Part shown: piece after piece, positions 6,755 through 24,397 of the stretch
Layout of the letters: each line of letters starts with the position of its first letter
Position numbering within the stretch: position 1 is the first letter of the stretch
Assembly: GCA_963744145.1 (NCBI GenBank)
Contig: CAVUSO010000001.1
Coordinates: 1,280,001 to 1,344,000 of the forward strand
Length of the DNA stretch: 64,000 nt
Source of the DNA: an uncultured cyanobacterium
GTDB taxonomy: Bacteria > Cyanobacteriota > Cyanobacteriia > Cyanobacteriales > CAWUOF01
Direction of reading: 5' to 3'
Made by a program: the position numbers and the translations under genes
The notes under the pieces: generated by a model
The model's database searches: none
Told to the model about the DNA's origin: nothing
Seen by the model: the letters and a program-made list of their open reading frames with translations, nothing else

Positions 6755-6821
6755 ATTCTTTGCCGATATCCCCCAAAATACTCTTAAGTGAACCATATTG
6801 CCCGATAAAGGAGAAAAACTG

Positions 6822-8111
6822 ATGAGTGGTAGTCCAAAACATACCCCAGCAGAGTTAGAAAGACGAAGACAGGAACAGCTAGAAAAAGAACGACAACGTA
6901 AAGCCAAAGAAGAAGCAAGACAAAGAGCAGCAGCAGCAGAGAGAGAAAGACTTCAGCGGTTGGAGACTCTCAGAAACCAGTTAATTGCCCAAGTTCAGGC
7001 GATCGCTTCACAAGTGCAGCAACAACAAAATAATATATATAGTGAGGATGGAACAGCACTCCAGAAACGCTGTCAGAATTTGCGTGATACTCTGGGTCAA
7101 GCCCAAACCGAATCTCAACTCCAGAAGATAGCCCAAGCATCACCTCAGATTGAACAAGATTTGCATAAAGCGGTTAGTCGCAAACGTCGAGATGAGGAGG
7201 AGAAAAAGCGACGGTTAGAATTAGAAAAACAACAGTTTGAACTAGAGGAATTAGAGCGACAAATTTCTCAAATTCCTAAAGCGGATGCAACTAAATTTGA
7301 TGCTAATGGATATGCAACAGTACAGCAAGCAATTGGAACAGTAAAAACCGCGATCGCAAGTAGTAATCCGGAAAGCGTCCGCGCACCCCTAGCTAATGCT
7401 ATAAAAGCATTACAAGATCATACCAATTTAGTAATCCAACATCGAACCGAATGGCTGCAACGTAAAGCTGAAGCGGAACAAGCTATTGGTGAACTTCAAG
7501 CATTTATTGTGGGATTAAGAGCTGATCCAGTAGTGATGCGGTGGCACGGACATACTATAACTGAATTGGAAACTCAAGCACAAACAGCAGTGCAAGCCTT
7601 AGCAGCAGAACAGTTTGAGCAACCCGCCAATATTCTAGCAGTAGCCCAGACGCGAGGACAGCAAATCGTAGAAGAAGCTAATGCCGAGCAAATTAAAGCT
7701 GACCAACGGGATTATATTGCTACCAGTATTGCTCAAACCTTGCAAGACATGGGTTTTATCGTTAGTCCTCCTCAAGCTGAATATGCTGATCATCCAAAAA
7801 CAGCCATGATTTTAAAAGCAGCTACTGCTTCAGGTAAAGGAATTAGTGTCAGTGTTCCAGTAGAAGGTGAAGTCTGGTACGACGTAGATGGATATACCAA
7901 AAGTACCGAAGCAGTTGTTGGTGGTGGTAATGCTGCGGTATGCGATGAAGCGGAACAGGTTTTAACCGATATGCACACTGCTTTAGAGGCAGAATTTGGC
8001 GTTAAAATGGGTGAAATTTCTTGGGAAGGAAAAGACCCTAACCGCAAACCGCGTAAAGCGGATGGACTACCTAATAACGATCAACAGCAGGGTAGAGGAG
8101 GTAATCGATGA
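6822..8111 (+). CDS. Coiled-coil protein with a small C-terminal alpha/beta domain (possibly DUF2997-like)
   Basis: AAGGAG RBS then ATG at 6822; long E/Q/R/K heptad region; C-terminal ISVSVPVEGEVWYDVDG...VCD...LEAEFGV. Confidence 0.75.
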   Translation: MSGSPKHTPAELERRRQEQLEKERQRKAKEEARQRAAAAERERLQRLETLRNQLIAQVQAIASQVQQQQNNIYSEDGTALQKRCQNLRDTLGQAQTESQLQKIAQASPQIEQDLHKAVSRKRRDEEEKKRRLELEKQQFELEELERQISQIPKADATKFDANGYATVQQAIGTVKTAIASSNPESVRAPLANAIKALQDHTNLVIQHRTEWLQRKAEAEQAIGELQAFIVGLRADPVVMRWHGHTITELETQAQTAVQALAAEQFEQPANILAVAQTRGQQIVEEANAEQIKADQRDYIATSIAQTLQDMGFIVSPPQAEYADHPKTAMILKAATASGKGISVSVPVEGEVWYDVDGYTKSTEAVVGGGNAAVCDEAEQVLTDMHTALEAEFGVKMGEISWEGKDPNRKPRKADGLPNNDQQQGRGGNR

Positions 8112-10093
8112 ATAGCTCAACTCCCACATCTTCCCGCTGGATTCTCGAATTTGAGAAACAAGTCCATCGCCGTCTGCATATTGTTTTGTATGGTAATATT
8201 CACGACCAGTTTCTCTGGCGCGGTAATTATCAAAATATCCACGAATTTCTCACCGCATACTTTCAAGACTTAAACTTTGAGCTAATTCTTCGGTATGACC
8301 CCATAGATGGGTTTAATTTTGTCAATCCAAAAATGAGACAGGGATTTGATGAATTAGTACGAAGTGGGGTAGCTAAACGGAACCCAGATTTAGGACAAAA
8401 TCCCCCAGTACCTTCACCAGCTCCAAATCCAATGGCACCTCCTCCAAGAGCTAATCCGGGTGCTGTGGGTCCTTCCCTAAATACTAGAGTCTCACCAGAG
8501 GATGCTTTTGGTAATTTGCGAGCTGTCGTATCTCAATCTAAAACTTCAGTAGCTGCAATTGTTGATTTAGGAGATATGCTCACCTCTGATCCAAGTCGCT
8601 ATATTGCTGAAGAGCGAAACGCTTTGGTGTTACTGAATAAATGCACCCTAGAAGCATCTGTGATCAGAGAGGGGGCTTTGAGCGGTTATCGCAATACTTT
8701 GGTGATTTTAGCTAGGGATTTGAAACGGGTGCCAGAGTGGTTTCATCAAAATAATCCCTTTGTCGGGATGGTGCAAATGTCGCGTCCCAATAAAGACGAA
8801 CGATGTCAGTTTATGATGCGTTTTTTCCAGGGATTTTATGAAGGCGATCGCATCAATACTAAACGCTCTTCTCCTCAAGCACCTTCAGAGCTAGAAATTC
8901 TCGCAGAAGAATTTGCTGATCTCACCGAAGGCTTTCGAGCAATGGATTTAGATGCGTTGCGTGCGACTTCTTGGCGTGAGCGCATTCCTCTCCGTGTTAA
9001 AGAAGTCTGGCGGTTAGTGGACTTTTTTAAATTTGGTCTACGGGATGATCCTTGGGAGCAGTTAAGCCCCGAAAAAGTTCGCTCTGCTAGAGAACAACTT
9101 TCTCGCACTGTGATTGGTCAACCTCGTGCAGTTGAATCTGTTACTACTATGCTCACTAGCGCAAGGGTGGGATTGAGCATAAGTAGTAGTGGTCGTAGTG
9201 GCAAACCTAAAGGTATTTTCTTTTTTGTTGGTCCGACAGGAGTTGGCAAAACTGAACTAGCCAAAGCTATGACCAAATTAGTGTTTGGCGATGAGCGATC
9301 GTTTGTCCGTTTTGATATGAGTGAGTACAAAGAAGAACACGCGGCTGAGAAATTAGCAGGCGCTCCTCCCGGTTTTGTGGGTTATGAAGAAGGGGGACAG
9401 CTAACCAATCGCGTGATTGAGCAGCCCTATAGTATTTTGCTGTTTGATGAAATTGAAAAAGCTCATCCCAAGGTGTTAGATAAGTTTTTGCAAATTTTAG
9501 AAGATGGAAGGCTTACTGATGGTAAAGGACAGACTGCTTATTTCAACCAAACTGCAATTATTTTTACTAGCAATATCGGCGCATCGGATTTAACTGATCC
9601 TCAGACAGGTGCGATCGTTCGGTGTGGGATTATGAACAAAGTGCAGCAAGGAAATACTAATGATTTCTCTTACGAAGAGGTAGAAAATCACTTCCGAACT
9701 GAAGTAGATTGGCACTTTACCAGTCGCATTGGTCGGGCGGAACTGCTCAACCGTTTGGGTGATAATATTGTGGTATTTGACTTGCTACGTCCAGATTTTG
9801 TGACTTTAATTGGGCAGAAGTTTTTACGACAACTATCAGATACAGCTCAGGAAAAGTACCGACTCAATTTAAACTTTTTGCCTTCAGTTCTAGATGTTTT
9901 GAGGGTGCGGATGGAACAAGGTAACAATTTACTATTCGGAGGAAGACGGATTAAAACCCTTTTAGAATCATTAGTGGAACGTCCCCTCAATAGTTGGATT
10001 TTTCAAAATTGCCCTGAAACCAGTAAATTAGCAGGGGGCACATTGAGGATTGGGATGACAGTTGATGGATGTTTAGAGGTGACTCATGTTTGA
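8108..10093 (+). CDS. ClpA/ClpB-like AAA+ ATPase (one intact D2-type module, degenerate N-terminal module)
   Basis: Walker A GPTGVGKT, RFDMSEY, pore loop GAPPGFVGY, Walker B LLFDEIEK; ATGA overlap with the upstream gene. Confidence 0.9.
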   Translation: MNSSTPTSSRWILEFEKQVHRRLHIVLYGNIHDQFLWRGNYQNIHEFLTAYFQDLNFELILRYDPIDGFNFVNPKMRQGFDELVRSGVAKRNPDLGQNPPVPSPAPNPMAPPPRANPGAVGPSLNTRVSPEDAFGNLRAVVSQSKTSVAAIVDLGDMLTSDPSRYIAEERNALVLLNKCTLEASVIREGALSGYRNTLVILARDLKRVPEWFHQNNPFVGMVQMSRPNKDERCQFMMRFFQGFYEGDRINTKRSSPQAPSELEILAEEFADLTEGFRAMDLDALRATSWRERIPLRVKEVWRLVDFFKFGLRDDPWEQLSPEKVRSAREQLSRTVIGQPRAVESVTTMLTSARVGLSISSSGRSGKPKGIFFFVGPTGVGKTELAKAMTKLVFGDERSFVRFDMSEYKEEHAAEKLAGAPPGFVGYEEGGQLTNRVIEQPYSILLFDEIEKAHPKVLDKFLQILEDGRLTDGKGQTAYFNQTAIIFTSNIGASDLTDPQTGAIVRCGIMNKVQQGNTNDFSYEEVENHFRTEVDWHFTSRIGRAELLNRLGDNIVVFDLLRPDFVTLIGQKFLRQLSDTAQEKYRLNLNFLPSVLDVLRVRMEQGNNLLFGGRRIKTLLESLVERPLNSWIFQNCPETSKLAGGTLRIGMTVDGCLEVTHV

Positions 10094-11327
10094 TTTGGAA
10101 TTGCTGTGGGATCGACCCGCAAAAATTAGCTCTCAATCGACAACTCATGTGCTGCGATCGCGGATCTATCCTCAATCGGTCGGAAATGCTTTACCTAGCT
10201 TACCCCTACGGATCGCGATCGCTCTCGATACTAGCCAATCAATGCAAGGGGAAAAGCTACAATGTGCTAAGGAAGCTTGCCGTGCGGTTGTTTCTCATTT
10301 ACGTGACACAGATCGCTTATTTCTAGCAGGTTTTTCTACGAGAGTAACACCTTTACTACAATCTCTTACAGGTGGTGCTAATGCTGTTTCATCGGCTAAT
10401 ACAGCGATCGCTAGTTTGCAACCAGAGGGAGTTACTCGCACCGATTTGGCATTAGAATGGATTCAGAATGCCTTACCAAAGGAAACTGGAGTCACAAGAG
10501 TGGGGATTTTGATTACAGATGGTCATGCGACTACTCCCCAAGGTAATCTATTAGATGACGTAACGCCGCTAATTAACCAATCTAGCCAACTGAGTAGTGC
10601 TGGAATTGTGCTGTGTACTGTAGGATTAGGAGATGCAGCTAATTTTAATACAGCTTTTTTAACTGATTTGAGCGACAAGGGAAGGGGTGCGTTTCTCTAT
10701 GCTGACACACCAACTATCCTAAAATCTCTACTCCAAGAAAGACTGGCTGCTTGTCAAGCGATCGCGACGGAAGAAGCTAAACTCCGATTCACTCTAAGTT
10801 CTGGTGTTACCCTCAAAGGTTTTTGTCGTTTCCGTCCCGAATATTTACCTTTGGAAGAAACTGCAAAAAATGAATTAACACTGGGTACGATCGGAACAAA
10901 CTCCCCAACCGATGTATTAATTGACTTAGAAATTCCAGCAAGTGGTTTTGGAGAACCAATGGGTAGTCGAGAAGTAGTTTCAGTCCAGTTAACAGCTAGA
11001 GGAATGACCAACCCGATTACTAAGACAGCAGCGATTACCTATACTAATTCCTACTCAGAAGCGCAAAAAGTTAACGCTGAAGTCAATAACGATCGACTCT
11101 GTTGGGATATTAACGTTTATAGTAATGACCTAACCCGCACTAACGATCCGAAGCGCACAGGAGAATTACTAGATAATATCCAGTTTACAGCTACCCAAGC
11201 CGGACAAGCAAATATTGCGAACCAAGCAGCTCAACAGCTAGATGATCTGAAAAAGACTGGAGTATTGAACCCCCACAAATCAACTGGACTCTTGCGGGAT
11301 TCTCGAAATTTGGGAGGGACAAAATGA
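10086..11327 (+). CDS. vWA domain protein
   Basis: MIDAS LDTSQSM, ILITDG, TVGLG; overlaps the AAA stop codon. Confidence 0.9.
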   Translation: MFDLELLWDRPAKISSQSTTHVLRSRIYPQSVGNALPSLPLRIAIALDTSQSMQGEKLQCAKEACRAVVSHLRDTDRLFLAGFSTRVTPLLQSLTGGANAVSSANTAIASLQPEGVTRTDLALEWIQNALPKETGVTRVGILITDGHATTPQGNLLDDVTPLINQSSQLSSAGIVLCTVGLGDAANFNTAFLTDLSDKGRGAFLYADTPTILKSLLQERLAACQAIATEEAKLRFTLSSGVTLKGFCRFRPEYLPLEETAKNELTLGTIGTNSPTDVLIDLEIPASGFGEPMGSREVVSVQLTARGMTNPITKTAAITYTNSYSEAQKVNAEVNNDRLCWDINVYSNDLTRTNDPKRTGELLDNIQFTATQAGQANIANQAAQQLDDLKKTGVLNPHKSTGLLRDSRNLGGTK

Positions 11328-11728
11328 ATAGTGGTTTTGGGATCGACCCCATTCCTGGGTTATCTCGACTTACCCCGGATAATGCTAAGTTACTATTATT
11401 AAACGGACCAGCAGCAGCAAGTCGGTTTCCTCTTCATCGAATACGATCGCTGATTGGTCGGAATGATCTACCTTTGATAACAGTAGATATTGATCTAACT
11501 GAATGCGAAATTGGCGATCCAATTGCTATATCTCGTCGTCATGCAGTGATTGAGTGGGTAGAAGGGGAATTACAAATTGTGGATTTGTGCAGTAGGAACG
11601 GTACTTTTGTTGATGGTCAAAAATTGACAGCGATCGCTCCTAATCAACCATCAGCTCCTGTCATTTTAAAAGCGGGAAGTAAGGTAAAACTAGGAAACTT
11701 GGAATTTGAGGTGATCACTCATGGATAA
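11324..11728 (+). CDS. FHA domain protein
   Basis: IGR...ISRRHA...DLCSRNGTFVDG; ATGA overlap. Confidence 0.92.
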   Translation: MNSGFGIDPIPGLSRLTPDNAKLLLLNGPAAASRFPLHRIRSLIGRNDLPLITVDIDLTECEIGDPIAISRRHAVIEWVEGELQIVDLCSRNGTFVDGQKLTAIAPNQPSAPVILKAGSKVKLGNLEFEVITHG

Positions 11729-12518
11729 GCCGATTGTAAAACTAGCCTACGGTTCCAAAACCGATCCTGGCAAAATTCGTAAAATCAATGAAGATAATCT
11801 TTTATTAGAATCATGGTCAGATGCTTTACTAGCAGTAGTTGCTGATGGAATGGGAGGACATAAAGGAGGAGAGGTAGCAGCCAAAATTGCCGTTGATACT
11901 TTTCGAGAGTTATTAGATCAGCCCTTACCTAAAGAACCTGTTGAACGATACGAACAACTGTTAAAAAAATTTTATGATGCTGATACTGCTATCCGCGAGC
12001 AATCCTCTCAAGAGTTCAGATTGATGGATATGGGAACTACTTTAATGGCAGCGATCGTTACTCCCACAGAATATATTCATCTATATGCTGGTGACTGTCG
12101 TTTATATCACTTCCACCAGGGAGAATTTACTTATATCTCGGCTGATCATTCAGTAGTCAGGATACTGCAAAACTTGGGAAAGATCACCCCAGAAGAAGCA
12201 GCTACTCATCCAATGCGTTCAGTGGTCAACTCCTGTCTAGGTGGTAAGGGAAATACACAATTCTCTGTTGACCCAAAATGGGACGATGAAAAGTTACCTG
12301 TGTTGCGTGAATTATGTCCAGGTGATGTATTACTACTATGCAGCGACGGACTAAATAGCGAAGTAAGTGACAATCAGTTACAAAATTTGGTGCAACAGTC
12401 TGGAAACTCGACCGAAGAACTGACTAAAGCTTGTGCCGAAGCAGCTTTAGAGCATGGTGGTAAAGATAATATTACAGTTATTGCTATTCAGGTACAGGAG
12501 GAAGATCAGCAAAAATAA
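11721..12518 (+). CDS. PP2C (PPM) Ser/Thr phosphatase
   Basis: RKINED, VADGMGG, MGTT, AGDCR, LLCSDGL, GGKDNIT. Confidence 0.93.
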   Translation: MDKPIVKLAYGSKTDPGKIRKINEDNLLLESWSDALLAVVADGMGGHKGGEVAAKIAVDTFRELLDQPLPKEPVERYEQLLKKFYDADTAIREQSSQEFRLMDMGTTLMAAIVTPTEYIHLYAGDCRLYHFHQGEFTYISADHSVVRILQNLGKITPEEAATHPMRSVVNSCLGGKGNTQFSVDPKWDDEKLPVLRELCPGDVLLLCSDGLNSEVSDNQLQNLVQQSGNSTEELTKACAEAALEHGGKDNITVIAIQVQEEDQQK

Positions 12519-12575: not shown

Positions 12576-14000
12576 ATGAACAATGAGCAACTATACCGAC
12601 GAATGTTGGAAGGACAATGGGTCAATGGACAATATCATCTCAAAAAACTCCTGGGAGCAGGAAGTTACGGAGTAGTTTTTCAAGCAGATGAAGTAGTCGG
12701 AAATCGCCTAGTTCGAGAAGTAGCTATTAAACTAATTTCTCCCAATGATGATGATCGCGATCTCCAGCTCCAAGAATTAATTGATGCAGTTAATTTAGAT
12801 CACCCCAATTTAGTGCGATGCTTTACTTCTGGTTTAGTTAAACTCAACGGAGTTGAATTTTTATATTTAGTCATGGAGCTAGCCCAAAAAACTCTCGCTA
12901 AACATTTAGAAAAAAGCTCTTTGTCTGTAGGAGAAGTGCAAAAAATCGTCCAGGAAATTGCTGCTGGATTAGTTTATCTTCATCGTGAACCCCATCCGCG
13001 AGTGCATCGTGATTTGAAACCAGCTAATGTCCTATGGGTAAGCGATCGCTGGAAATTATCAGATTTTGGGTTATTGCGGTCAACTGGTTCTAAGGGTTCA
13101 GCTCGCACCAGTAAAGTTAGGAGAACTGACGGTTATGCTCCCCCAGAAGCTTATCTCGGAGTGGTGGCTCCCACTTGGGATGTGTGGTCATTAGGGGTGA
13201 TCATGGTGGAAATGCTCACGGGACAGCTACCCTTTACAGGAGATACAGAGCAGGAATTGATCGTAAAAGTAATGGACGGAAAACCATCAATCGAATGGTC
13301 AAAAGTCCACCAATCATTCAGAGAGATCATCAAGGGAGCTTTAGAGAAAGAGCGGAAAGACCGATGGACGGCACAAAGGGTGCTGAATACTTTTACCAAA
13401 AAATATCTCCCTCCAACCATCCCATCTATTGTGAGTCCATTTCCTGGGAAAATAGAAATAGGACAGAATCCTTTTACCGCAAAAGGTATCCCTCTATTTG
13501 ACCCAACTCCAAGCATAGTGAGTCAGCCTCCTGTGCAATTGAAGTCAGCAAAAGGGGTAGATTACACTAATTTACAACGCTTACTAGCCGCAGGAAAATG
13601 GAAGGAAGCGGATGAGGAAACAGGCAAAAAAATGTGCGAGGTCATGGGGCGACAAAAAGAAGGTTGGCTAGATGTCGAACATATCGATAATTTTCCCTGT
13701 GAAGACCTTCGCACAATTGATCAACTTTGGGTAAAATCTAGTAACGGTCATTTTGGCTTTTCTGTGCAAAAGCGTATCTATCAAAGTCTCGGTGGAACCC
13801 GGAACTATGATGAGAAAATCTGGGCTGCTTTTGGCGATCGCGTCGGCTGGAGGAAAAATGGAGACTGGATATACTACAGCGACCTCACCTTCTCAACCAA
13901 ATCTCCCGGTGGCCACCTCCCCTTGTGGTGGGGGAAAGGTCCGTGTGTGGTGGTTGGTGCCTCTTCTCTCGCGTCGAGACTTGTAGACTGTAACATATAA
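12576..14000 (+). CDS. Hanks-type Ser/Thr kinase with C-terminal GUN4-like domain (copy 1)
   Basis: LGAGSYG, VAIK, HRDLKPAN, DFG, APPE; GUN4-like motifs YTNLQRLLAAGKWKEADEET, DLRTIDQLW, GHFGFSVQ, GHLP. Confidence 0.92.
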   Translation: MNNEQLYRRMLEGQWVNGQYHLKKLLGAGSYGVVFQADEVVGNRLVREVAIKLISPNDDDRDLQLQELIDAVNLDHPNLVRCFTSGLVKLNGVEFLYLVMELAQKTLAKHLEKSSLSVGEVQKIVQEIAAGLVYLHREPHPRVHRDLKPANVLWVSDRWKLSDFGLLRSTGSKGSARTSKVRRTDGYAPPEAYLGVVAPTWDVWSLGVIMVEMLTGQLPFTGDTEQELIVKVMDGKPSIEWSKVHQSFREIIKGALEKERKDRWTAQRVLNTFTKKYLPPTIPSIVSPFPGKIEIGQNPFTAKGIPLFDPTPSIVSQPPVQLKSAKGVDYTNLQRLLAAGKWKEADEETGKKMCEVMGRQKEGWLDVEHIDNFPCEDLRTIDQLWVKSSNGHFGFSVQKRIYQSLGGTRNYDEKIWAAFGDRVGWRKNGDWIYYSDLTFSTKSPGGHLPLWWGKGPCVVVGASSLASRLVDCNI

Positions 14001-14008
14001 AGCTTACA

Positions 14009-14245
14009 AAAAATTGTTACATTTTGTAAATACACGATTTCCCACGAAGCCATGCGCCTTCTAGCTTTCCGATACCTGGCACCGACGCCGAGCGAAGTAC
14101 CGACAGTTATTCTGTAGTTTTCTGTAGTATCTGACCCACTACTTCGGGGTTATAACAATTAGCAATGACAAATTTATCAGCCACAGCTAAGATATCTGGA
14201 TTCATTTCCTCAAAATCAGCCCAAGGTAAATTCTTTTCATCTCTT
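14009..14245 (-). pseudogene. 3' remnant of a convergent unknown gene
   Basis: Minus strand reads RDEKNLPWADFEEMNPDILAVADKFVIANCYNPEVVGQ, then about 50 extra nt containing a stop, then PGIGKLEGAWLRGKSCIYKM*. A homologous remnant lies after kinase 3. Confidence 0.5.
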
Positions 14246-14339
14246 TAATAAGCTCGCGATCGGTGTTGGTGGTGGATGGCGATCGGTGTTTAAAGATTTT
14301 TAATAGGTCGCGATCGGTGTTTCCAATAATCAGTTAATT

Positions 14340-14698
14340 GTAGGGGCGAAGCATTCGGGCGACAATTAATCGCATAAAACTTTACCCTGAGCGGAGTCGA
14401 AGGGCAGTAATATTATATCCGAATGCTGATGCCGTAGGCATCGCTACGCGAACGCCCTTCTTCGCCGATATCTCCCAAAACATTCTTAATTGAACCGGAT
14501 TGATATATCATTAATTGAACCGGATTTATATATTAATTGAACCGGATTTATATATTAATTGAACCGGGTTTATATATTAATTGAACCGGATTTATATATA
14601 GTTGATCTGTTGGTTGCATAGATGGTGAGGGCAAAGCATTTCGGTAATGGTTTCTTCGTTTCAGCGATAATTTCTTCGCCGAAATGCTTTGCCCCTAC
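14340..14698. repeat. Composite REP-like module: hairpin A + 5x TTAATTGAACCGG.TT.ATAT + inverted hairpin B
   Basis: GTAG at both outer ends facing inward; hairpin B is GGGCAAAGCATTTCGG...CCGAAATGCTTTGCCCCTAC. Confidence 0.85.
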
Positions 14699-14922
14699 AG
14701 GGAACCGAATCGGATTGTGTTTTCTTATATAGATCGATATTAAATATAATAAATGATGTTTTATTGCGATCGCGTTATGTCTTGAATTGGCGGCGATCGC
14801 AGTTAGATAACTAATTAACTGAAACAAGCGATCGCCAATTCCAGTAATCAGAATCTAATCACTATTGTTGGTGGATGGTGATGGCGTTGGCGTGATAATT
14901 TTCATTGACAGTTGAGTTCTTT

Positions 14923-15164
14923 GTAGGGGCGAAGCATTCGGGCGACAATTTATCGCATAAAACCAATAACATTTTATCCGAATGCTTCGCCCTTCTTCGC
15001 CGATATCTCCCAAAACATTCTTAATTGAACCGGGTTTATCTATTAATTGAACCGGATTTATATATAGTTGATCTGTTGGTTTCATGGATGGTGAGGGCAA
15101 AGCATTTCGGTAATGGTTTCTTCGTTTCAACGATAATTTCTTCGCCGAAATGCTTTGCCCCTAC
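14923..15164. repeat. Composite REP-like module (2 central units)
   Basis: Same A + tandem + B layout as 14340-14698. Confidence 0.85.
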
Positions 15165-15339
15165 AGGGAACCGAATCGGAGTATTGTTATATAGATCGAT
15201 ATTAAATATAATAAATGATGTTTAATTGCGATCGCGTTATGTCTTGAATTGGCGGCGATCGCAGTTAGATAAATAATTTTTGTTAAAATTAGAATATTTA
15301 TAGATTTTTGCTTCTTGTAAGTCTATGGATCTATGGGTG

Positions 15340-15369
15340 TTGATATTTTCGGTTATTCAGGTATATAGT
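15340..15369 (+). promoter_or_regulatory. Putative sigma70-type promoter
   Basis: TTGATA-N18-TATAGT immediately before the structured segment. Confidence 0.4.
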
Positions 15370-15377
15370 AAAGTTAA

Positions 15378-15543
15378 CCATCCGACCTAAACGCATTAAT
15401 ACGAGGGTTTACCATGAGTTTCGACTCACATCGACTCCCAGTGTGCGCTTCCTTCGGTTCCTCCTTTCGACGACCCTCAGAGTAAACGAGCAGGTAAGCG
15501 AACGGGCACACGCAGGTTATGTTTATCCATGTAGGTCGGACTG
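15378..15543. ncRNA. Putative structured RNA or DNA hairpin element, family unknown
   Basis: GC-richer than its flanks; closed by TCCGACCTA/TAGGTCGGA; contains the hairpin TGAGT-TTCG-ACTCA and a long bulged GTGTGC...GCACAC stem. Confidence 0.4.
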
Positions 15544-15594
15544 CGATCGCTCTTAACCGTTTCCTTGAAGTTAACAACAACAAAAACTAAATTT

Positions 15595-15774
15595 ATGGAA
15601 AAAGTTGTATTCAAAACTACTAATAAACAACAACCTACTGACTTTGCTTACTGGCAAAAACAAACGCCTCAAAAACGTTTAGACACTCTCGAACAAATCC
15701 GCCAAGAATATCATCAATATAAATATAATGCTCAACCAAGATTTCAAAGAATTTATACAATTATTAAACGATAA
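15595..15774 (+). CDS. Small protein (59 aa), putative partner of the downstream nucleotidyltransferase
   Basis: DFAYWQKQTPQKRL...RFQRIYTIIKR; overlaps the nucleotidyltransferase start. Confidence 0.6.
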   Translation: MEKVVFKTTNKQQPTDFAYWQKQTPQKRLDTLEQIRQEYHQYKYNAQPRFQRIYTIIKR

Positions 15775-15990
15775 TCAGGTTAAATACCTGGTTATTGGTG
15801 GTTATGCTGTGGCAATTCATTAGTTACTTCACCTGATGGAGTAGATTTTCAAACTTGCTATGATTCAAAAATGGAGTTTATTATTGATGAGATGATGATT
15901 AAATTTATCGATCTTGATAATCTCATAAAAAATAAATTAGCATCGGTTAGACTTCAGGATTTGGCAGATTTAGAAAATTTACAGAACTAA
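15728..15990 (+). pseudogene. Nucleotidyltransferase (TA-associated type) with internal deletion and stop
   Basis: MLNQDFKEFIQLLNDNQVKYLVIGGYAVAIH*, then TSPDGVDF...DNLIKNKLASVRLQDLADLENLQN*. The catalytic RxTxDxD segment expected after the GG motif is missing. Confidence 0.7.
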
Positions 15991-16031
15991 TTATTGCACA
16001 ATCAATTTGAATAAATTGAGCGAAAAAGTCT

Positions 16032-17456
16032 ATGAACAATGAGCAACTATGGCGAATGTTAGCAGGAGAATGTGTCAACGGACAATATCACCTCAAAAAA
16101 CTCCTGGGTGTCGGCAGTTACGGCGCAGTTTTTCAAGCAGATGAAGTGGTCGGCGATCGCCTAGTTCGAGAAGTAGCTATTAAGATAATTTCCCCAGATA
16201 ATGATGAAAAAACCCGCGATCGCCAGCTCCAAGAATTGATTGTCGCGGTTAATTTAGATCACCCGAATTTAATCCGTTGTTTTGCTCCAGGGTTAGCTCA
16301 AATTAAAGGATTTGAATTTTTGTATTTGCTAATGGAGTTAGCAGAAGAAACCCTCGCTAAACGTCTAGAAAAAAGTTCTTTGTCATTGGAAGAAGTACAG
16401 AAAATAGTTCAAGAAATAGCTGCCGGATTAGTTTATCTTCATCGTGAACCCCATCCGAAAGTACATCGTGATTTGAAGCCCGCTAATGTACTACGAGTGG
16501 GCGATCGCTGGAAATTATCAGATTTTGGCTTATTGCGCTCAATCGATTCTCAGGGTTCAGCTCGCACTAGTAAAGGTCAGGGAACTAACGGCTATGCTCC
16601 CCCAGAAGCTTATGATGGAGTAGTTGCTCCAGCTTGGGATGTGTGGTCATTAGGAGTAATCATGGTGGAACTGCTCACGGGACAGCTACCCTTTACAGGA
16701 GATACAGAGCAGGAATTGCTCAAAAAAGTAATGGAGGGTAAACCATCAATCGAATGGTCAAAAGTCCACCAATCATTCAGAGAGATGATCAAGGGAGCTT
16801 TAGAGAAAGAGCGGCAAAACCGATGGACGGCAGAAATGGTGCTGAATACTTTTACCAAAAAAGATCTCCCTCCAACTACCCCATCCATTGAGAGTCAGCC
16901 TCCTTTGCAATTGAAGTCAGCAAAAGGAGTAGACTACACTAATTTACAACGCTTACTAGCCGCAGGGAAATGGAAAGAAGCGGATGAGGAAACAAGCAAA
17001 AAAATGTGCGGGGTCATGGGGCGACAAGAAGAAGGTTGGTTAAGAAGCGAAGATATTGATAATTTTCCCTGCGAAGACCTTCGCACAATTGATCAACTTT
17101 GGGTAAAATCTAGTAACGGTCATTTTGGCTTTTCTGTGCAAAAGCGCATCTATCAAAGTCTCGGTGGAACCCGGAACTATGATGAGAAAATTTGGGAAGC
17201 TTTTGGCGATCGCGTTGGCTGGAGGAAAAATGGAGCTTGGATATACTACAGTGACCTCACTTTCTCAACCACTTCTTTGGTGGGCCATATCCCTGGGTTA
17301 CCACTTCTTTGTTTGGAGGGCTATCTCCCTGTTGTATTGGTGGTGAGTGTTTGGATAGGTAAAGAGGTTTTTTGGGTTGTCTCTTCTCTCGCGTCGAGAC
17401 TTGTAGACTCTTCTCCAAGCCAGGCGCATTCTGATTCAGATATCATCCTATTGTAA
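16032..17456 (+). CDS. Ser/Thr kinase-GUN4 protein (copy 2)
   Basis: Same motifs as copy 1; different linker and tail. Confidence 0.92.
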   Translation: MNNEQLWRMLAGECVNGQYHLKKLLGVGSYGAVFQADEVVGDRLVREVAIKIISPDNDEKTRDRQLQELIVAVNLDHPNLIRCFAPGLAQIKGFEFLYLLMELAEETLAKRLEKSSLSLEEVQKIVQEIAAGLVYLHREPHPKVHRDLKPANVLRVGDRWKLSDFGLLRSIDSQGSARTSKGQGTNGYAPPEAYDGVVAPAWDVWSLGVIMVELLTGQLPFTGDTEQELLKKVMEGKPSIEWSKVHQSFREMIKGALEKERQNRWTAEMVLNTFTKKDLPPTTPSIESQPPLQLKSAKGVDYTNLQRLLAAGKWKEADEETSKKMCGVMGRQEEGWLRSEDIDNFPCEDLRTIDQLWVKSSNGHFGFSVQKRIYQSLGGTRNYDEKIWEAFGDRVGWRKNGAWIYYSDLTFSTTSLVGHIPGLPLLCLEGYLPVVLVVSVWIGKEVFWVVSSLASRLVDSSPSQAHSDSDIILL

Positions 17457-17459
17457 TAA

Positions 17460-17740
17460 TACCGTGATCGGTGTTAGGGGTGGATGGTGATCGCAGTTTA
17501 ACGATTTTCAATAATAAGATCGCGATCGGTGTTTCCGGTAATCAAAATCTAATTGCTGTTAGTGGATGGCGATCGCAGGTTGACGATTTTAATAATAAGA
17601 CAATCTTAAATTGAATCAATCTATCATCATAAATTTGGATAATAAATGACATTTAAGCGCGATCGCATTATGTCTTTAATTGCAGGCGATCGCAGTTTAA
17701 CGATTTTCACGGTTGTCGCGATCGGTGTTTCCAATAATCA
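17460..17740. repeat. Degenerate HIP1-centred short repeats
   Basis: Recurring GCGATCGGTGTT / GTGGATGGCGATCGCAGTTT.ACGATTTT units; similar units at 14254-14335. Confidence 0.6.
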
Positions 17741-17747
17741 GTTAATT

Positions 17748-18063
17748 GTAGGGGCGAAGCATTCGGGCGACAATTAATCGCACAAAACTTTACCCTGAGC
17801 GGAGTCGAAGGGCAGTAACATTATATCCGAATGCTTCGCCCTTCTTCGCCGATATCTCCCAAAACATTCTTAATTGAACCGGATTTATATATCATTAATT
17901 GAACTGGATTTATATATCATTAATTGAACCGGATTTATATATTAATTGAACCGGATTTATATATAGTTGATCTGTTGGTTGCATAGATGGTGAGGGCAAA
18001 GCATTTCGGTAATGGTTTCTTCGTTTCAGCGATAATTTCTTCGCCGAAATGCTTTGCCCCTAC
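17748..18063. repeat. Composite REP-like module (4 central units)
   Basis: Near-identical to 14340-14698. Confidence 0.85.
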
Positions 18064-18226
18064 AGGGAACCGAATCGGATTGTGTTTTCTTATATAGATC
18101 GATATTAAATATAATAAATGATGTTTAATTGCGATCGCATTATGTCTTTAATTGGCGGCGATCGCAGTTAGATAACTAATTATCTGCTAAAATAAGAAAG
18201 AAGTCAACCACTATTAAAGTTCCTCA

Positions 18227-19235
18227 ATGCAAGACAAACCCCGCGCCGACTACGATAGTCCTTGGAAAGAAGCCATTAACAGTTACTTTGAACCTTTCAT
18301 GAATTTTTTCTTTCCGGTCATCCATCAAGAAATCGACTGGACAAAAGGCTATGAAACCTTAGATGCAGACTTACAAGAAGTCGTAAGAGATGCAGAAACG
18401 GGGAATCGTTTAGCCGATAAGCTCGTGAAAGTTTGGTTAAATCATAGCACCCAGGAAATTTTAATCCTGGTGCATATCGAAATCCAAGGAGGAGTAGATC
18501 CGAACTTTGCGAAACGGATGTTTATCTACAATCACCGTTTATTTGACCGATACGATCGAGAAGTGATTAGTTTAGCAGTATTAGGAGATGAGCAAAAATC
18601 CTGGCGTCCCAATAGTTATGGTTATGCAATGTGTGGATTTAGTAGCCAATTGCAGTTTCCCATCGTCAAACTCTTAGACTACCAAGAACAATGGGAGTTG
18701 CTTGAACAAAGCACTAATCCTTTTGCTGTAATTGTCATGGCACATTTAACTGCAAAGGAAACCACCAGAGATCCACAAAGAAGATTACAAGGGAAACTCA
18801 GCATAGTGCGGGGGCTATATGAACGGGGCTATAATAGGGAGGAAATCAAGCGAACTATTTCGGTTAATTGACTGGATGATGGTATTACCAGACCAGCTAG
18901 AACAGGATTTTCGGGTGGAATACAAACGGTTTCAGGAGGAAAATCAAGTGCCATATATCACCAGTATTGAACGTTTAGCGAAAGCAGAAGGTAGAGAAGA
19001 AGGCTTAGAAGAAGGGATCGAACAAGGAATCGAACAAGGAATCGAACGAGGCAGTGTACAAACAGCACAGGAAAATATCATCACAGTGTTGGAGACTAGG
19101 TTTGGAGAAGTACCAGAAATCTTCAGAGAGCGGATTAATCAAATCGAAGATTTAGCCACATTAAGACAACTTCTCATTCGTGGCATTACGATCGCTTCTT
19201 TCGAGGATTTTGAGCAAGAAATCTCTTCAAATTAG
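18227..19235 (+). pseudogene. Rpn/transposase_31-like protein, frameshifted near 18848
   Basis: DYDSPWKE...HIEIQG...RMFIYNHR, continuing in another frame as ELFRLIDWMMVLP...EEGIEQG...LETRFGEVP; one extra A in GAAATCAAGCGAA. Confidence 0.8.
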
Positions 19236-19376
19236 TCACTAGGTTCTAGTTAATTCCCCTATTGGGTTGAGGGGCGATCGCTATTTATCTGCTCTGATAT
19301 AGAGATTTAGATGCGATCGCCTCTTCTCACAAAATACCACCCCGAGACAAATTGAATAAATTGATCGAAAAATCCT

Positions 19377-20699
19377 ATGAACAATGAGCAACTGTGGCGA
19401 ATGTTGACAGGAGAATGTGTCAATGGACAATATCACCTCAAAAAACTCCTGGGCGTCGGCAGTTACGGCGCAGTTTTTCAAGCGGATGAAGTTGTTGGCG
19501 ATCGCTTAATTCGCCAAGTAGCTGTTAAGCTAATTTCTCCAGATGGAGATGATAAAAATCGCGATCGCCAGCTCCAAGAATTAATTACTGCCGTTAATCT
19601 AGATCACCCGAATTTAGTACGCTGCTTTACTTCAGGGTTAGCTGAAATCAAAGGATTTGAATTTTTGTATTTAGTCATGGAGTTAGCAGAAGAAACCCTC
19701 ACCAAAAGTCTTTCAGAAAAAAGCTCTTTGTCTGTGGGAGAAGTGCAAAAAATAGTTGAGGAAATAGCTTCAGCATTGGTTTATCTTCATCATGAACCCG
19801 AGCGGAGAGTACATCGCGATTTGAAACCAGCTAATGTACTAAGAGTAGGCGATCGCTGGAAATTATCAGATTTTAGCTTATTGCGGTCAATCGGTTCTAA
19901 GGGTTCAGCTCGCACCAGTAAAGGTCAGGGAACTAACGGCTATGCTCCTCCAGAAGCTTATGATGGAGTAGTTGCTCCAGCTTGGGATGTGTGGTCATTA
20001 GGAGTAATCATGGTGGAACTGCTCACGGGACAGCCACCCTTTACAGGAGATACAGAGCAGGAATTGATCAAAAAAGTCATGGAGGGTAAACCATCAATCG
20101 AATGGTCAAAAGTCCACCAATCATTCAGAGAGATGATCAAGGGAGCTTTAGAGAAAGAGCGGAAAGACCGATGGACGGCAGAAATGGTGTTGAATACTTT
20201 TAAAGAGCGCCCGACCATATTACCGTCAGCAGATTACCAAAAGTTAGAAAGCTTACTAGCCGCAGGAAAATGGGAAGAAGCTGATCAGGAAACAGCAAAA
20301 AAAATGTGCGCGGTAATGGAGCGAGAAAAAGAAGGTTGGCTAAGACCCGAAGATATTGATAATTTTCCCTGCGAAGACCTTCGCACAATTGATCAACTTT
20401 GGGTACATTATAGCAATGGTCATTTTGGCTTTTCCGTGCAGAAGCGGATCTATCAAAGTCTGGGTGGAACTTGCAACTACGATCAAAACATTTGGACTGC
20501 TCTTGGCGATCGCGTTGGTTGGAGGCAAAATGAACAATGGCTATACTACAATGATCTCACATTCTCAGTCGAAAATTCTCCCGAAGGCCATCTTCCATTG
20601 GGAGTGAGAAAAGCGATTTGGCGCGGTTGTGGTTTTGCAGGTTGGTTTGGTCTTTGTGGCACTTCTCTCGCGTCGAGACTTGGAGATTGTAACATCTAA
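19377..20699 (+). CDS. Ser/Thr kinase-GUN4 protein (copy 3; DFG changed to DFS)
   Basis: Kinase and GUN4-like motifs; LSDFSLL; short linker. Confidence 0.9.
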   Translation: MNNEQLWRMLTGECVNGQYHLKKLLGVGSYGAVFQADEVVGDRLIRQVAVKLISPDGDDKNRDRQLQELITAVNLDHPNLVRCFTSGLAEIKGFEFLYLVMELAEETLTKSLSEKSSLSVGEVQKIVEEIASALVYLHHEPERRVHRDLKPANVLRVGDRWKLSDFSLLRSIGSKGSARTSKGQGTNGYAPPEAYDGVVAPAWDVWSLGVIMVELLTGQPPFTGDTEQELIKKVMEGKPSIEWSKVHQSFREMIKGALEKERKDRWTAEMVLNTFKERPTILPSADYQKLESLLAAGKWEEADQETAKKMCAVMEREKEGWLRPEDIDNFPCEDLRTIDQLWVHYSNGHFGFSVQKRIYQSLGGTCNYDQNIWTALGDRVGWRQNEQWLYYNDLTFSVENSPEGHLPLGVRKAIWRGCGFAGWFGLCGTSLASRLGDCNI

Positions 20700-20716
20700 G
20701 ACTTTCAGACAATTTT

Positions 20717-20820
20717 TAGATTTTATGAATACAATATTTTTCACGAAGCCATCTGCTTGATTTCTTTCCGATACCTGAATGATCCACGACTTGGGGGTTA
20801 TAACAATTAGCGATCGCATT
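20717..20820 (-). pseudogene. 3' remnant of a convergent unknown gene (second copy)
   Basis: Minus strand AIANCYNPQVVDHSGIGKKSSRWLREKYCIHKI*, homologous to the remnant after kinase 1. Confidence 0.5.
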
Positions 20821-20937
20821 TTATCTCTTTGTTAATAAGATTGCGATCGCTGTTTCGGGTAATCAGAATATAATCACTGTTATTGGTGGATGGCGATGGC
20901 GTTGCCGTGATAATTTTCATTGATAGTTCAGTTACTT

Positions 20938-21290
20938 GTAGGGGCGAAGCATTCGGGCGACAATTAATCGCACAAAACTTTACCCTGAGCGTTCCCTGAG
21001 CGGAGTCGAAGGGCGGAGTCGAAGGGCGGAGTCGAAGGGCAGTAATATTATATCCGAATGCTTCGCCCTTCTTCGCCGATATCTCCCAAAACATTCTTAA
21101 TTGAACCGGATTGATATATCATTAATTGAACCGGATTGATATATCATTAATTGAACCGGGTTTATCTATTAATTGAACCGGATTTATATATAGTTGATCT
21201 GTTGGTTTCATCGATGGTGAGGGCAAAGCATTTCGGTAATGGTTTCTTCGTTTGGGCGATAATTTCTTCACCGAAATGCTTTGCCCCTAC
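20938..21290. repeat. Composite REP-like module (4 central units; 13-bp GGCGGAGTCGAAG triplicated in the loop of hairpin A)
   Basis: Same A + tandem + B layout. Confidence 0.85.
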
Positions 21291-21350
21291 AGGGAACTGA
21301 ATCGGCTGGTGTTTTCTCCTATAGATCGCTATTAAATTGAATTAATCTAT

Positions 21351-21958
21351 TATGGTTATGCAATGTGTGGATTTAGTAGCCAATTGCAGTTTCCCATCGT
21401 CAAACTCTTAGACTACCAAGAACAATGGGAGTTTTTGGAACAAAGTACCAATCATGAAAGCAGTAATTGTCATGGCACATTTAACAGCAAAGGAAACCAC
21501 CAGAGATCCACAAAGAAGATTACAAGGGAAACTCAGCATAGTGCGGGGACTATATGAACGGGGCTATAATAGGGAGGAAATCAAGCGAACTATTTCGGTT
21601 AATTGACTGGATGATGGTATTACCAGACCAGCTAGAACAGGATTTTCGGGTGGAATACAAACGGTTTCAGGAGGAAAATCAAGTGCCATATATCACCAGT
21701 ATTGAACGTTTAGCCAAAGCAGAAGGTAGAGAAGAAGGCTTAGAAGAAGGGATCGAACAAGGAATCGAACGAGGCAGTGTACAAAATTCACGGGAAAATA
21801 TCATCACGGTGTTGGAGACTAGGTTTGGAGAAGTGCCAGAAATCTTCAGAGAGCGGATTAATCAAATCGAAAATTTAGCCACATTAAGACAACTTCTCAT
21901 TCGTGGCATTACGATCGCTTCTTTCGAGGATTTTGAGCAAGAAATCTCTTCAAATTAG
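21351..21958 (+). pseudogene. 5'-truncated duplicate of the Rpn-like gene
   Basis: Near-identical to 18616-19235, with the same frameshift plus a further lesion near 21455. Confidence 0.85.
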
Positions 21959-22096
21959 TCACTAGGATCTAGTTAATTCCAATATTGGGTTGAGGAGCGA
22001 TCGCAATTTATCTGCTCTTATATAGAGATTTAGATGCGATCGCCTCTTCTCAAAATACACCCCGATACAAATTGAAGAAATTGAGCGAAAAAGTCT

Positions 22097-23488
22097 ATGC
22101 ACGATCAGCAACTGTGGCGAATCTTAGAAGGAGAATGTGTCAACGGACAATATCATCTCAAAAAACTATTAGGAGTAGGAGGCTTTGGAGGAGTTTTTCA
22201 AGCAGATGAAGTGGTCGGCGATCGCCTAGTTCGAGAAGTAGCTATTAAGCTAATTTCCCCAGATAGTGATGAAAAAAATCGCGATCGCCAGCTCCAAGAA
22301 TTGATTGATGCTGTTAATCTAGATCACCCCAATTTAGTGCGATGCTTTACTTCTGGTTTAGTTGAAATCAAAGGGTTTAAATTTTTGTATTTAGTAATGG
22401 AACTAGCCCAAGAAACCCTGGCTAAACGTCTAGAAAAAAGCTCTTTGTCGGTGGAAGAAGTGCAAAAAATCGTCCAGGAAATCGCTGCTGGATTGGTTTA
22501 TCTTCATCATGAACCCGATCCGAAAGTACATCGCGATTTGAAGCCTGCTAATGTACTAAGAGTAGGCGATCGCTGGAAATTATCAGATTTTGGCTTATTG
22601 CGTTCAATCGGTTCTAAAGGTTCAGCTCGTACCAGTAAAGGTGGGGGAACTTACAGCTATGCTCCCCCAGAAGCTTATGACGGAGTAGTTGCTCCAGCTT
22701 GGGATGTATGGTCATTAGGAGTAATCATGGTGGAAATGCTCACAGGACAGCTACCCTTTACAGGAGATACAGAGCAGGAATTGATCGTAAAAGTAATGGA
22801 GGGTAAACCATCAATCGAATGGTCAAAAGTCCACCAATCATTCAGAGAGATGATCAAGGGAGCTTTAGAGAAAGAGCGGAAAGACCGATGGACAGCAGAA
22901 ATGGTGCTGAATACTTTGACCGGACTAACCCCAACTCGTCCAACAGAAAGCCAGCAGACTGTATCCTTGAAGTCAGCAAAAGGAATAGATTACACTAATT
23001 TACAATGCTTACTAGCCGCAGGGAAATGGGAGGAAGCTGATGAAGAAACATATAAAAAAATGTGCGAGGTCATGGGACGACAAAGAGAAGGTTGGCTAGA
23101 TGTCGAACAGATCGATAATTTTCCTAGTGAAGACCTTCGCACAATTGATCAACTTTGGGTAAAATCTAGTAACGGTCATTTTGGCTTTTCTGTGCAAAAG
23201 CGCATCTATCAAAGTCTGGGTGGAACCCAGAACTATGATCAGACAATTTGGGAAGCTTTTGGCGATCGCATCGGTTGGAGGAAAAATGGATACTGGATAT
23301 CTACCAGTAAACACACCTTCTCAAAGGATTCTCCCGTTGGCCATCTCCCCTCGGCGAGGTGGGGGCGCGATTGGGGTACTATGGTGGCGGCGGCGGCTGT
23401 GTGGGGGTGGCGTTATTTTATCGGGGGGGAAGGGATTTTTGATGGTTTTAAATGTGGGTGGTCTCTTCTCTCGCGTCGAGACTTGTAA
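22097..23488 (+). CDS. Ser/Thr kinase-GUN4 protein (copy 4)
   Basis: LGVGGFGG, HRDLKPAN, DFG, GUN4-like motifs; ends LLSRRDL* by reading the shared 3' anchor in another frame. Confidence 0.92.
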   Translation: MHDQQLWRILEGECVNGQYHLKKLLGVGGFGGVFQADEVVGDRLVREVAIKLISPDSDEKNRDRQLQELIDAVNLDHPNLVRCFTSGLVEIKGFKFLYLVMELAQETLAKRLEKSSLSVEEVQKIVQEIAAGLVYLHHEPDPKVHRDLKPANVLRVGDRWKLSDFGLLRSIGSKGSARTSKGGGTYSYAPPEAYDGVVAPAWDVWSLGVIMVEMLTGQLPFTGDTEQELIVKVMEGKPSIEWSKVHQSFREMIKGALEKERKDRWTAEMVLNTLTGLTPTRPTESQQTVSLKSAKGIDYTNLQCLLAAGKWEEADEETYKKMCEVMGRQREGWLDVEQIDNFPSEDLRTIDQLWVKSSNGHFGFSVQKRIYQSLGGTQNYDQTIWEAFGDRIGWRKNGYWISTSKHTFSKDSPVGHLPSARWGRDWGTMVAAAAVWGWRYFIGGEGIFDGFKCGWSLLSRRDL

Positions 23489-23499
23489 ACATCAAAACA

Positions 23500-23864: not shown

Positions 23865-24170
23865 TCAAATTTCGCGATTTCTATTTTTCCAGTAATTCGG
23901 TTTGCGTCTGCTATGCGCGATCGCCATAACCAAAATCTCTTCTTCTAGCTCTGTATAGAAAATTACATAGGGAAACCTTTGAATAGGATAACGGCGTATT
24001 CCTTGAATATGGTGCAAAGCTCCTAAGTTGGGGTTGTCCTGAATTTTAAGCAGGCTTTTTTCTACTTCAGACAACAAATCTAATCCCAAGCCTACTTGTT
24101 GAGTTTCATAGTAAGCTATTGCAGCGTCAAGCTCTGCCCGAGCTTCAATGTGGATACTAATAAACTTCAC
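23865..24170 (-). CDS. RelE/ParE-family toxin
   Basis: HIEARAELDAAIAYYE...RFPYVIFY...MAIAHSRRKPNYW. Confidence 0.88.
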   Translation of the reverse strand: MKFISIHIEARAELDAAIAYYETQQVGLGLDLLSEVEKSLLKIQDNPNLGALHHIQGIRRYPIQRFPYVIFYTELEEEILVMAIAHSRRKPNYWKNRNREI

Positions 24171-24397
24171 GAATATTTTTCTCGTAATTCAGCAAAAACT
24201 TTAGATGCTGGTTCTACAACAGCGGTTTTGTTATTAAAACTTTCTAACCTTTTGACTAATTCCATATCCCAAGCTGTTTCTAGATCATCATCTATCCCTT
24301 CATGTAGAGAATGAATCAAAAAATAGGCAATTTCAGCACGCTCTTTTAGAGAAAGCTGAGAAAGTTCGAGTTTAAGTTTTTCTGCCGTTTCACTCAT
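24167..24397 (-). CDS. Addiction-module antitoxin (TIGR02574-like)
   Basis: LSLKERAEIAYFLIHSL...AWDMELVKRL; 4-nt overlap with the toxin. Confidence 0.85.
   Translation of the reverse strand: MSETAEKLKLELSQLSLKERAEIAYFLIHSLHEGIDDDLETAWDMELVKRLESFNNKTAVVEPASKVFAELREKYS

Follow-up and report, generated by a model that had tools for sequence, protein, structure and literature searches.

The 64,000 nt of DNA analysed here (the window, G000:C1:1280001-1344000) lie in a 7.7-Mb assembly of an uncultured cyanobacterium (genome 96% complete) and carry an array of four genes that fuse a Ser/Thr kinase to a GUN4-like domain. Each gene ends in a short, hypervariable, G/T-rich insert. The comparison of these inserts with their counterparts elsewhere in the genome and in other cyanobacteria points to a dedicated junctional diversification module, which probably operates without a reverse transcriptase (RT) and comprises a GUN4-paralogue domain, a cis element directly behind the insert and a HUH nuclease encoded by a gene facing the GUN4 gene. 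The domain is found fused to kinases, caspases and other domains.

Hypervariable inserts in the kinase-GUN4 array

An earlier note on this DNA had placed GH(L/I)P codons at 13911, 17283, 20586 and 23339 and an invariant 21-mer at 13963, 17383, 20662 and 23465, with strongly skewed, unalignable segments in between. All of these positions were reproduced exactly, and no other copy of the 21-mer was present in the window. The inserts were 40, 88, 64 and 114 nt long with 20, 29, 26 and 55 G, respectively. For all six pairs, 36-94% of 1000 shuffles reached the real alignment score, and outside the insert the paralogues were close (78-90% identity over the upstream 312 nt and 85-90% in the kinase DNA). 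The skew stood out clearly: among 3198 tiles of 40 nt, taken from both strands of the window, a single one had G>=20 and G+T>=32.

Gene 1 (474 aa; 12576..14000, + strand; PF00069 and PF05419) has its left insert junction at the GHLP codons (13911..13922, +), followed by insert 1 (13923..13962, +; 40 nt up to the 21-mer, G20 T13 A3 C4). Behind it lies a complete cis element (13961..14091, +), consisting of a three-frame anchor with stops in an ungapped stretch of ~125 bp, which was the top match of the element profile in the genome. The element includes the 14-bp motif CCGATACCTGGCAC (14069..14082, +), common to procA- and cyanobactin-linked copies, and beyond it a 45-codon 3' remnant of a TnpA-REP-like (Y1/HUH) nuclease gene faces gene 1 (14107..14244, - strand; E 3e-7 with a profile of 16 relatives). 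This remnant and the 125-bp element correct the earlier statement that no recombinase was identified in the window. Gene 2 (474 aa; 16032..17456, +) carries insert 2 (17295..17382, +; 88 nt), which holds a 12-nt copy of the DNA just upstream of GHIP; only the anchor follows (17381..17409, +), the remaining element being lost. Gene 3 (440 aa; 19377..20699, +) has insert 3 (20598..20661, +; 64 nt) and most of a cis element, which ends inside the 14-bp motif (20662..20777, +). In gene 4 (463 aa; 22097..23488, +), insert 4 (23351..23464, +; 114 nt, G55) is followed by the anchor only (23463..23490, +). The anchor is read as SSLASRL... in genes 1-3, and gene 4 ends in another frame, SLLSRRDL.

Inserts across the genome and other cyanobacteria

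A search of the genome with a profile of the four domains gave 56 matches in 49 open reading frames (ORFs), 45 of them with a GHLP-like motif. A recognisable anchor was found in 30 of these 45 parsed domains; the other 15 were set aside, six being G/T-rich with degenerate anchors and nine ordinary paralogues. The 30 inserts ranged from 30 to 158 nt, with a composition of A14 C9 G43 T34% that was similar at all codon positions, and two of them (46 and 30 nt) were pure G/T. No periodicity was seen in them, and G/T steps had dinucleotide ratios near 1. G at four-fold degenerate sites reached 39.5%, compared to 16% in the genome and 11% upstream in the same genes. One protein (G000:C1:7458205-7461405) contains four near-identical GUN4 repeats, each with a distinct G/T insert and a second type of anchor.

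Pattern scans yielded at least 122 genome loci and at least 120 metagenome loci, which were pooled with loci of relatives into at least 199 records and at least 182 distinct inserts; 180 non-redundant copies were used for the statistics. Among the matches listed, the 182 distinct inserts averaged A17 C12 G39 T33% and were 13-158 nt long. With this larger set the inserts stayed unrelated to one another, near-identical loci excepted, and all three length classes modulo 3 were found (75/46/59), so that length is not restricted by frame. Nor does amino-acid preference alone account for the skew, as four-fold sites were biased in the same way (G718 T605 A287 C185, compared to A1650 C1614 T1554 G1119 upstream). 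In-frame stops occurred in only five of the 180 inserts versus 102 after shuffling, and in 98 and 104 in the other two frames. Together with the biased composition, the scarcity of in-frame stops suggests that base-biased synthesis is followed by selection that keeps the frame open.

Traces of copying were also present. Copies of upstream DNA were seen in 20 of the 180 inserts (4.5 expected), about half of them ending at the end of GHLP; direct repeats within inserts numbered 21 against 6.8 expected; and partial anchor copies followed by fresh G/T sequence occurred at L212, L242 and L104. Read from sequence, all three features would fit end extension with template slips. A blastn search for donors of the 30 genome inserts returned only short or simple-repeat matches. 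The non-templated addition that the earlier note listed as one possibility may be how the segment is written. Telomerase-like synthesis on a short template was rejected, the enriched k-mers being solely G/T runs and GHLP copies. When the genome was scanned for further G/T tracts, 192 segments were obtained, 23 of them in GUN4; antisense Pro/Thr repeats made up most of the result, and among the matches listed there was no other target family.

Junctions and the ligand loop

On the left, the Leu codon of GHLP was CTC in 114 of 180 copies, compared to 153 of 1140 upstream Leu codons. Nine loci (L165, L166, L172, L178-L181, L188 and L192) have a GE(F/L)P-like motif in place of GHLP before the same element, indicating some freedom in the sequence of the left junction. 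The right edge was sharp, with T at -5 in 97%, C at -6 in 69% and T at -7 in 71%; from -8 leftward the composition was insert-like, in all three frames. Stops in every frame lay within 42 nt in 147 of 181 anchors. In every frame, the first 35 nt of the element encode a helix-like C-terminal end closed by a stop codon, so that the anchor is predicted to supply three alternative endings of this kind. The 21-mer, invariant among the four window copies as first described, is one variant of a longer, genome-wide anchor.

The insert starts at the position of the LxNxLR motif of true GUN4, described as its bilin-binding motif in text of PMC10156173. This motif is present in the true GUN4 of the genome (C1:1114417) and absent after GHLP in all four window genes, the insert occupying its place. 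The putative ligand-binding surface of the earlier note is accordingly supported as far as the location on a ligand-binding loop is concerned; that the loop sets ligand specificity in the GUN4 paralogues is a further step, which we infer.

A cis element with a shared 14-bp motif

Between the junction and the nuclease gene lie ~125 bp, of which 74 copies aligned ungapped. The element ends in the motif CCGWTACCTGGCAC. In 58 of 69 copies the distance between motif and anchor core is exactly 101 nt, and the motif is kept both where it lies outside the nuclease gene and where it overlaps the gene in differing frames. The exact motif was found in 30 of 151 genomes, with five control matches. When searched alone, it led to GUN4 ends at 20 of the 27 loci read and to chance matches in unrelated genes at the other seven. 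All 12 close anchor matches in the genome were GUN4 ends. Two isolated distal halves of the element were also observed (G000, C1:2540525-2540583 and 5579206-5579239), one away from any GUN4 gene and the other 2 kb behind one.

The same motif was present behind procA genes of two picocyanobacteria. It also follows four cyanobactin precursor genes, whose flanks are identical and whose cores differ. The cores of the procA and cyanobactin arrays are hypervariable, and in both cases the genes face the same nuclease clade. The cyanobactin precursors lie in a cluster (L329, G096:C1:1714000-1730000) with two PatA/G proteases, a LynF/TruF prenyltransferase and the four motif-trailed precursors; one 104-nt core of this cluster is G/T-rich and frameshifted, with junction duplications. 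In text of PMC6162287, a transposase between a cyanobactin precursor and a prenyltransferase is mentioned without comment.

The facing HUH nuclease

When the 885 proteins encoded next to anchor loci were clustered, the dominant family was a ~255-aa Y1/HUH transposase-like protein. It was present at 16 of 61 long anchor loci (80 minus 19 non-cyanobacterial chance matches or duplicates), always tail-to-tail with GUN4 and ending ~20-100 bp from its stop codon. A search started from the nuclease, and hence independent of the anchor pattern, found it in 36 of 151 genomes of the class. At 25 of the 30 nuclease loci fetched it faced a GUN4 domain; the other five were an anchor-bearing contig end, the cyanobactin cluster, the copy of this genome and two picocyanobacterial loci. 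Conversely, of the 136 anchors with a flank of >=400 nt, 61 were followed by a whole or remnant nuclease gene.

Residues H60, H62, Y122, N126 and P127 (HUH and YxxxNP) were invariant in 11 nuclease sequences. The first structure model was poor (pLDDT 55); a later one (pLDDT 84) matched best to TnpA-REP (4er8; Z 16.8, root-mean-square deviation 2.7 over 156 residues). Thg1-like structures also matched (Z 7.0-7.4), within the common-fold range, and were not used as evidence. Scores for the RAYT family NF047646 were 72.5 and 68.7 bits, under the 80-bit cut-off. A conserved SPGQ-x-x-L-W near the nuclease end (alignment A1, 212-220) may resemble a sliding-clamp binding motif.

In this genome, 3' remnants of the nuclease gene were found behind or near six GUN4 genes, including that at 14107-14244 of the window. 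The sole near-full-length gene (C1:6188688-6189506) is interrupted by an inserted 24-nt repeat and an early stop and is not followed by an element; from its sequence it is probably inactive. The four window tails are therefore probably frozen products. A 1226-aa ORF (G000:C1:6347661-6351341) contains a Y1-like stretch at residues 617-735 of the frame (E 3e-9), possibly a fusion or an embedded nuclease domain.

Turnover of the insert

In 19 locus pairs, identity was >=93% on either side of the insert. Sixteen of them do not differ at all in their upstream DNA and have the same insert, and several of these look like one assembly filed twice. All three pairs with any upstream difference had unrelated inserts, an estimate of strain-level turnover that rests on few pairs. 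L240 and L312 carry unrelated inserts between flanks of 98.2% and 99.4% identity. L232 and L254 also differ in their inserts, with the nuclease in place and 98.9% identity over 1489 nt downstream. These cases support the earlier proposal of replacement at a fixed site. In one metagenome-assembled genome (L175) an assembly gap falls exactly over the insert. A greater variability of terminal than of internal domains found no support in the counts (1 of 12 versus 2 of 10 groups).

Proposed mechanism

Genomic association strongly indicates that the nuclease is involved, and it is rather likely that it drives the replacement of the insert. For the chemistry, which is deduced from sequence, the following nick-trim-extend-rejoin route is postulated; in its exact form it is tentative and is more likely to be wrong in some step than right in all. 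The nuclease would be recruited by the element, whose 14-bp motif lies ~109 bp from the junction, and would nick single-stranded DNA at the anchor edge, probably at the sense-strand C|T step between -6 and -5. TnpA-REP is described in part of PMC8266576 as cutting C|T to leave a 5'-phosphotyrosine and a 3'-OH. A sense-strand cut at this position would leave the GHLP side free and the anchor protected. With the anchor held as the 5'-phosphotyrosine, the free 3'-OH end would be shortened by up to the whole distance to GHLP, then extended with a G>T>A>C bias, mostly without template and with occasional slips onto neighbouring DNA, and finally re-joined. The three-frame end would tolerate any length, and selection would remove alleles with stops. 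A housekeeping enzyme or the nuclease complex itself is favoured over an RT as the extender.

The same scheme might extend further. It is possible, at somewhat less than even chances, that cyanobacteria possess a general RT-free diversity generator in which a domesticated HUH nuclease and a portable 14-bp motif open a fixed junction to near-random, untemplated, G/T-biased writing at sensor loops and at lanthipeptide and cyanobactin cores, as a counterpart of N-addition in complementarity-determining region 3 (CDR3).

Several observations weigh against these proposals. A polymerase with a G>T>A>C bias was not found. Known Y1 enzymes need hairpins, and neither a conserved hairpin nor a consensus fold or covariation was detected in the 74 elements. 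Conservation of the anchor at -4 to +6 is partly built into the search patterns. Inserts beside long nuclease matches were only slightly purer than the others (median G+T 0.80, n=27, versus 0.67-0.76 in other classes; p 0.015 versus 101 others). Only one of the four cyanobactin cores is G/T-rich. A G/T skew is also absent from nine procA cores that face the sister nuclease (A28 C21 G29 T22), which makes a single shared writer less likely. The authors who described the procA pairing found no phylogenetic link between the adjacent genes (bioRxiv 10.1101/2020.03.09.984088). With regard to turnover, terminal domains of >=93% identity formed 12 groups among 120 proteins (one group n=17), 11 of which kept a single tail, so that the variability between orthologous loci expected by the earlier note was borne out in the slightly diverged pairs but not in these. 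No alternative insert was seen in three contig sets, an uninformative result; the sole sequencing run with the locus, likewise without a variant insert, consists of low-depth contigs and probably represents the source sample. The frozen groups and the lack of read variants suggest that rewriting is episodic or dependent on an intact nuclease.

Alternative explanations

The best-surviving alternative, though an improbable one, is a selfish one-ended element, in which the nuclease gene and its 125-bp end are mobile and the G/T tract is filler made once and then fixed. The variable-length nuclease 3' remnants behind many targets, the tails frozen in many lineages and the occurrence of the same end next to unrelated gene families all agree with this. 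No conserved upstream DNA, second end or inverted repeat was found, however, in the upstream regions of 46 nuclease matches. The element profile matched 26 places in this genome, nearly all of them GUN4 ends, and no displaced old gene ends were seen. A filler fixed once is also at odds with the orthologous loci L232 and L254, which differ in insert while the nuclease is still in place, and a selfish end leaves the stops in all three frames of most anchors unaccounted for.

Somewhat less probable is that the nuclease nicks and an RT acting in trans, of the Abi/DRT type or the type of diversity-generating retroelements (DGRs), writes the antisense strand, on which the bias reads C,A>T>>G. This reading matches the preference of AbiA, which according to part of PMC11077055 makes almost solely A and C, uses dTTP poorly and dGTP never; for the DGR RT, text of PMC7826257 gives misincorporation in the order A>C>G. 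A DGR RT was present in 14 of 36 nuclease genomes versus 12 of 115 others (p 2.5e-4, kinship uncorrected), and this genome has both a Drt5 gene and a truncated DGR-type RT. Against such a writer, 22 of the 36 nuclease genomes lack a DGR RT by the query used, no template repeat was found and no RT was among the recurring neighbours in the 885-protein set. Genome G101 (one contig, 99% complete, with an intact pair), whose own insert is short, was without any match to RVT_1, Y-family, LigD-type or PolX. The RTs of this genome were considered as candidates and rejected, as none is linked to GUN4: a CRISPR-linked one beside cas1/cas2, Drt5, and the truncated DGR-type remnant, which has no Avd or target nearby. 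A ~470-aa RT recurring in relatives was also set aside, since it was not beside GUN4 in the 16 RT loci read and not among the matches of this genome. As observations in their own right, an RT gene directly precedes cas1 and cas2 at L001, with a long CRISPR array, and the Drt5 antiviral RT lies at L002 6608-8089.

It is more unlikely still that no dedicated machinery exists, the loop drifting by G/T-run slippage and paralogue recombination with the nuclease hitch-hiking. TTT and GGG are over-represented in inserts (z 9 and 7), direct repeats are in excess, and two pairs share part of an insert (L203/L309, 44 nt; L104/L222, 14 nt), all as slippage and recombination would predict. Yet the inserts are aperiodic with G/T-step ratios near 1, their edges are sharp, and the nine anchor-less paralogues of the same genome have an ordinary composition at the insert site (A30 C16 G27 T27). 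Slippage also fails to explain complete replacement at 98-99% flank identity, the linkage at 25 of 30 nuclease loci and the fixed spacing of the motif.

A canonical DGR target or cassette exchange from a silent donor is largely refuted and very improbable: the C-terminal site on kinase-fused sensors resembles cyanobacterial DGR targets (part of PMC7517822), but lengths of 13-158 nt occur in all frames, blastn found no donor for 30 inserts, the 12 close anchor matches were all GUN4 ends and the target is not a C-type lectin.

Neighbouring genes of the array

An operon encoding a coiled-coil protein, an AAA+ ATPase and vWA, FHA and PP2C proteins (6798..12518, +) leads into the kinase-GUN4 array and is context outside the rewriting module. 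At L407 (G011), a homologue of the first operon gene and an AAA-like gene adjoin a tandem array of four kinase-GUN4 genes with its intact, facing nuclease gene. The layout shared by G011 and the window suggests a conserved signalling or conflict locus. Within the array, two split gene copies (window 18227-19235 and 21363-21958) were duplicated along with the kinase genes; they have no Pfam match and presumably resemble Rpn-type proteins. A ParE-family toxin gene and an adjacent small gene lie just past the array (23865-24397).

Comparison with known systems

The closest parallel is the prochlorosin system of marine picocyanobacteria, in which procA faces tnpA-REP and a diversifying recombination was proposed (bioRxiv 10.1101/2020.03.09.984088). 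Shared with the GUN4 loci are the facing genes, a conserved distance, conserved intergenic DNA, numerous C-terminal nuclease fragments, an indel-rich variable 3' region, a sister nuclease at ~50% identity and the same 14-bp motif behind procA genes. The GUN4 module differs in its target, a sensor, in its hosts, filamentous as well as unicellular cyanobacteria, and in its constant three-frame end; the strong G/T bias was unseen in the nine procA cores, and the intergenic hairpin of procA/TnpA-REP pairs was seen in the picocyanobacterial loci only. The main text of the preprint names neither GUN4 nor the base bias nor the motif, and states that the closest nuclease relatives do not sit by lanthipeptide genes; a later note by its authors withdraws the causal claim (bioRxiv 10.1101/2020.03.09.984088). 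Cutting and diversification of the target by the nuclease are a proposal for procA too. No account of a GUN4-tail module was found in the literature on GUN4 with hypervariability or transposase, a coverage that leaves out most subscription journals.

Among RAYT/TnpA-REP proteins, subclass 2.1 (TIRYT) is alike in HUH-x-H, YxxxNP, C-terminal extension, fold and low copy number, as described in parts of PMC6006769, PMC3733652 and PMC8266576 (PDB 4ER8). Unlike these, the GUN4-linked nuclease was found without flanking REP sequences or inverted repeats and with a single conserved end that points into a coding gene; the flanks of a REPtron or TIRtron were not seen, as there was no conserved DNA upstream (46 matches) and no consensus hairpin downstream. 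An IS200/IS605 transposon was rejected on an NF033573 score of 25 bits against the 55-bit cut-off, with no recurring partner gene and no upstream end.

Cyanobacterial DGRs are similar in placing a variable C-terminal ligand surface on kinase, caspase, TIR and comparable domains and in their many dispersed paralogues (part of PMC7517822). They differ from the GUN4 module, for which no RT, template repeat or Avd partner was found and whose inserts vary in length, are not restricted to adenines and sit on a GUN4 fold; in this genome, 96% complete, neither a template repeat, conserved length nor an intact RT with Avd was seen. The earlier note had likewise judged the pattern unlike a DGR. Relative to canonical GUN4 (PDB 1Y6I), the paralogue domain is homologous up to GHLP, after which the insert replaces the LxNxLR region.

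DGRs, inversion and donor-cassette exchange are the main ways in which bacteria are known to diversify proteins in a targeted manner. If the proposed module is real, length-changing and largely untemplated rewriting initiated by a HUH enzyme would be a further route, and a class of domesticated transposases would gain a testable function. One 255-aa enzyme and one motif would also offer a handle on the hypervariability of prochlorosin and cyanobactin cores, and could be put to use in vivo as a compact means of making libraries of random loops. The CDR3-like character noted at the outset has a parallel in V(D)J recombination, where a transposase-derived nuclease acts at a signal sequence and is followed by trimming, apparently untemplated addition and selection for an open frame. 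The likeness is one of analogy only, as the GUN4 module would use single-strand HUH chemistry on one gene, with no joining of segments and with a three-frame end.

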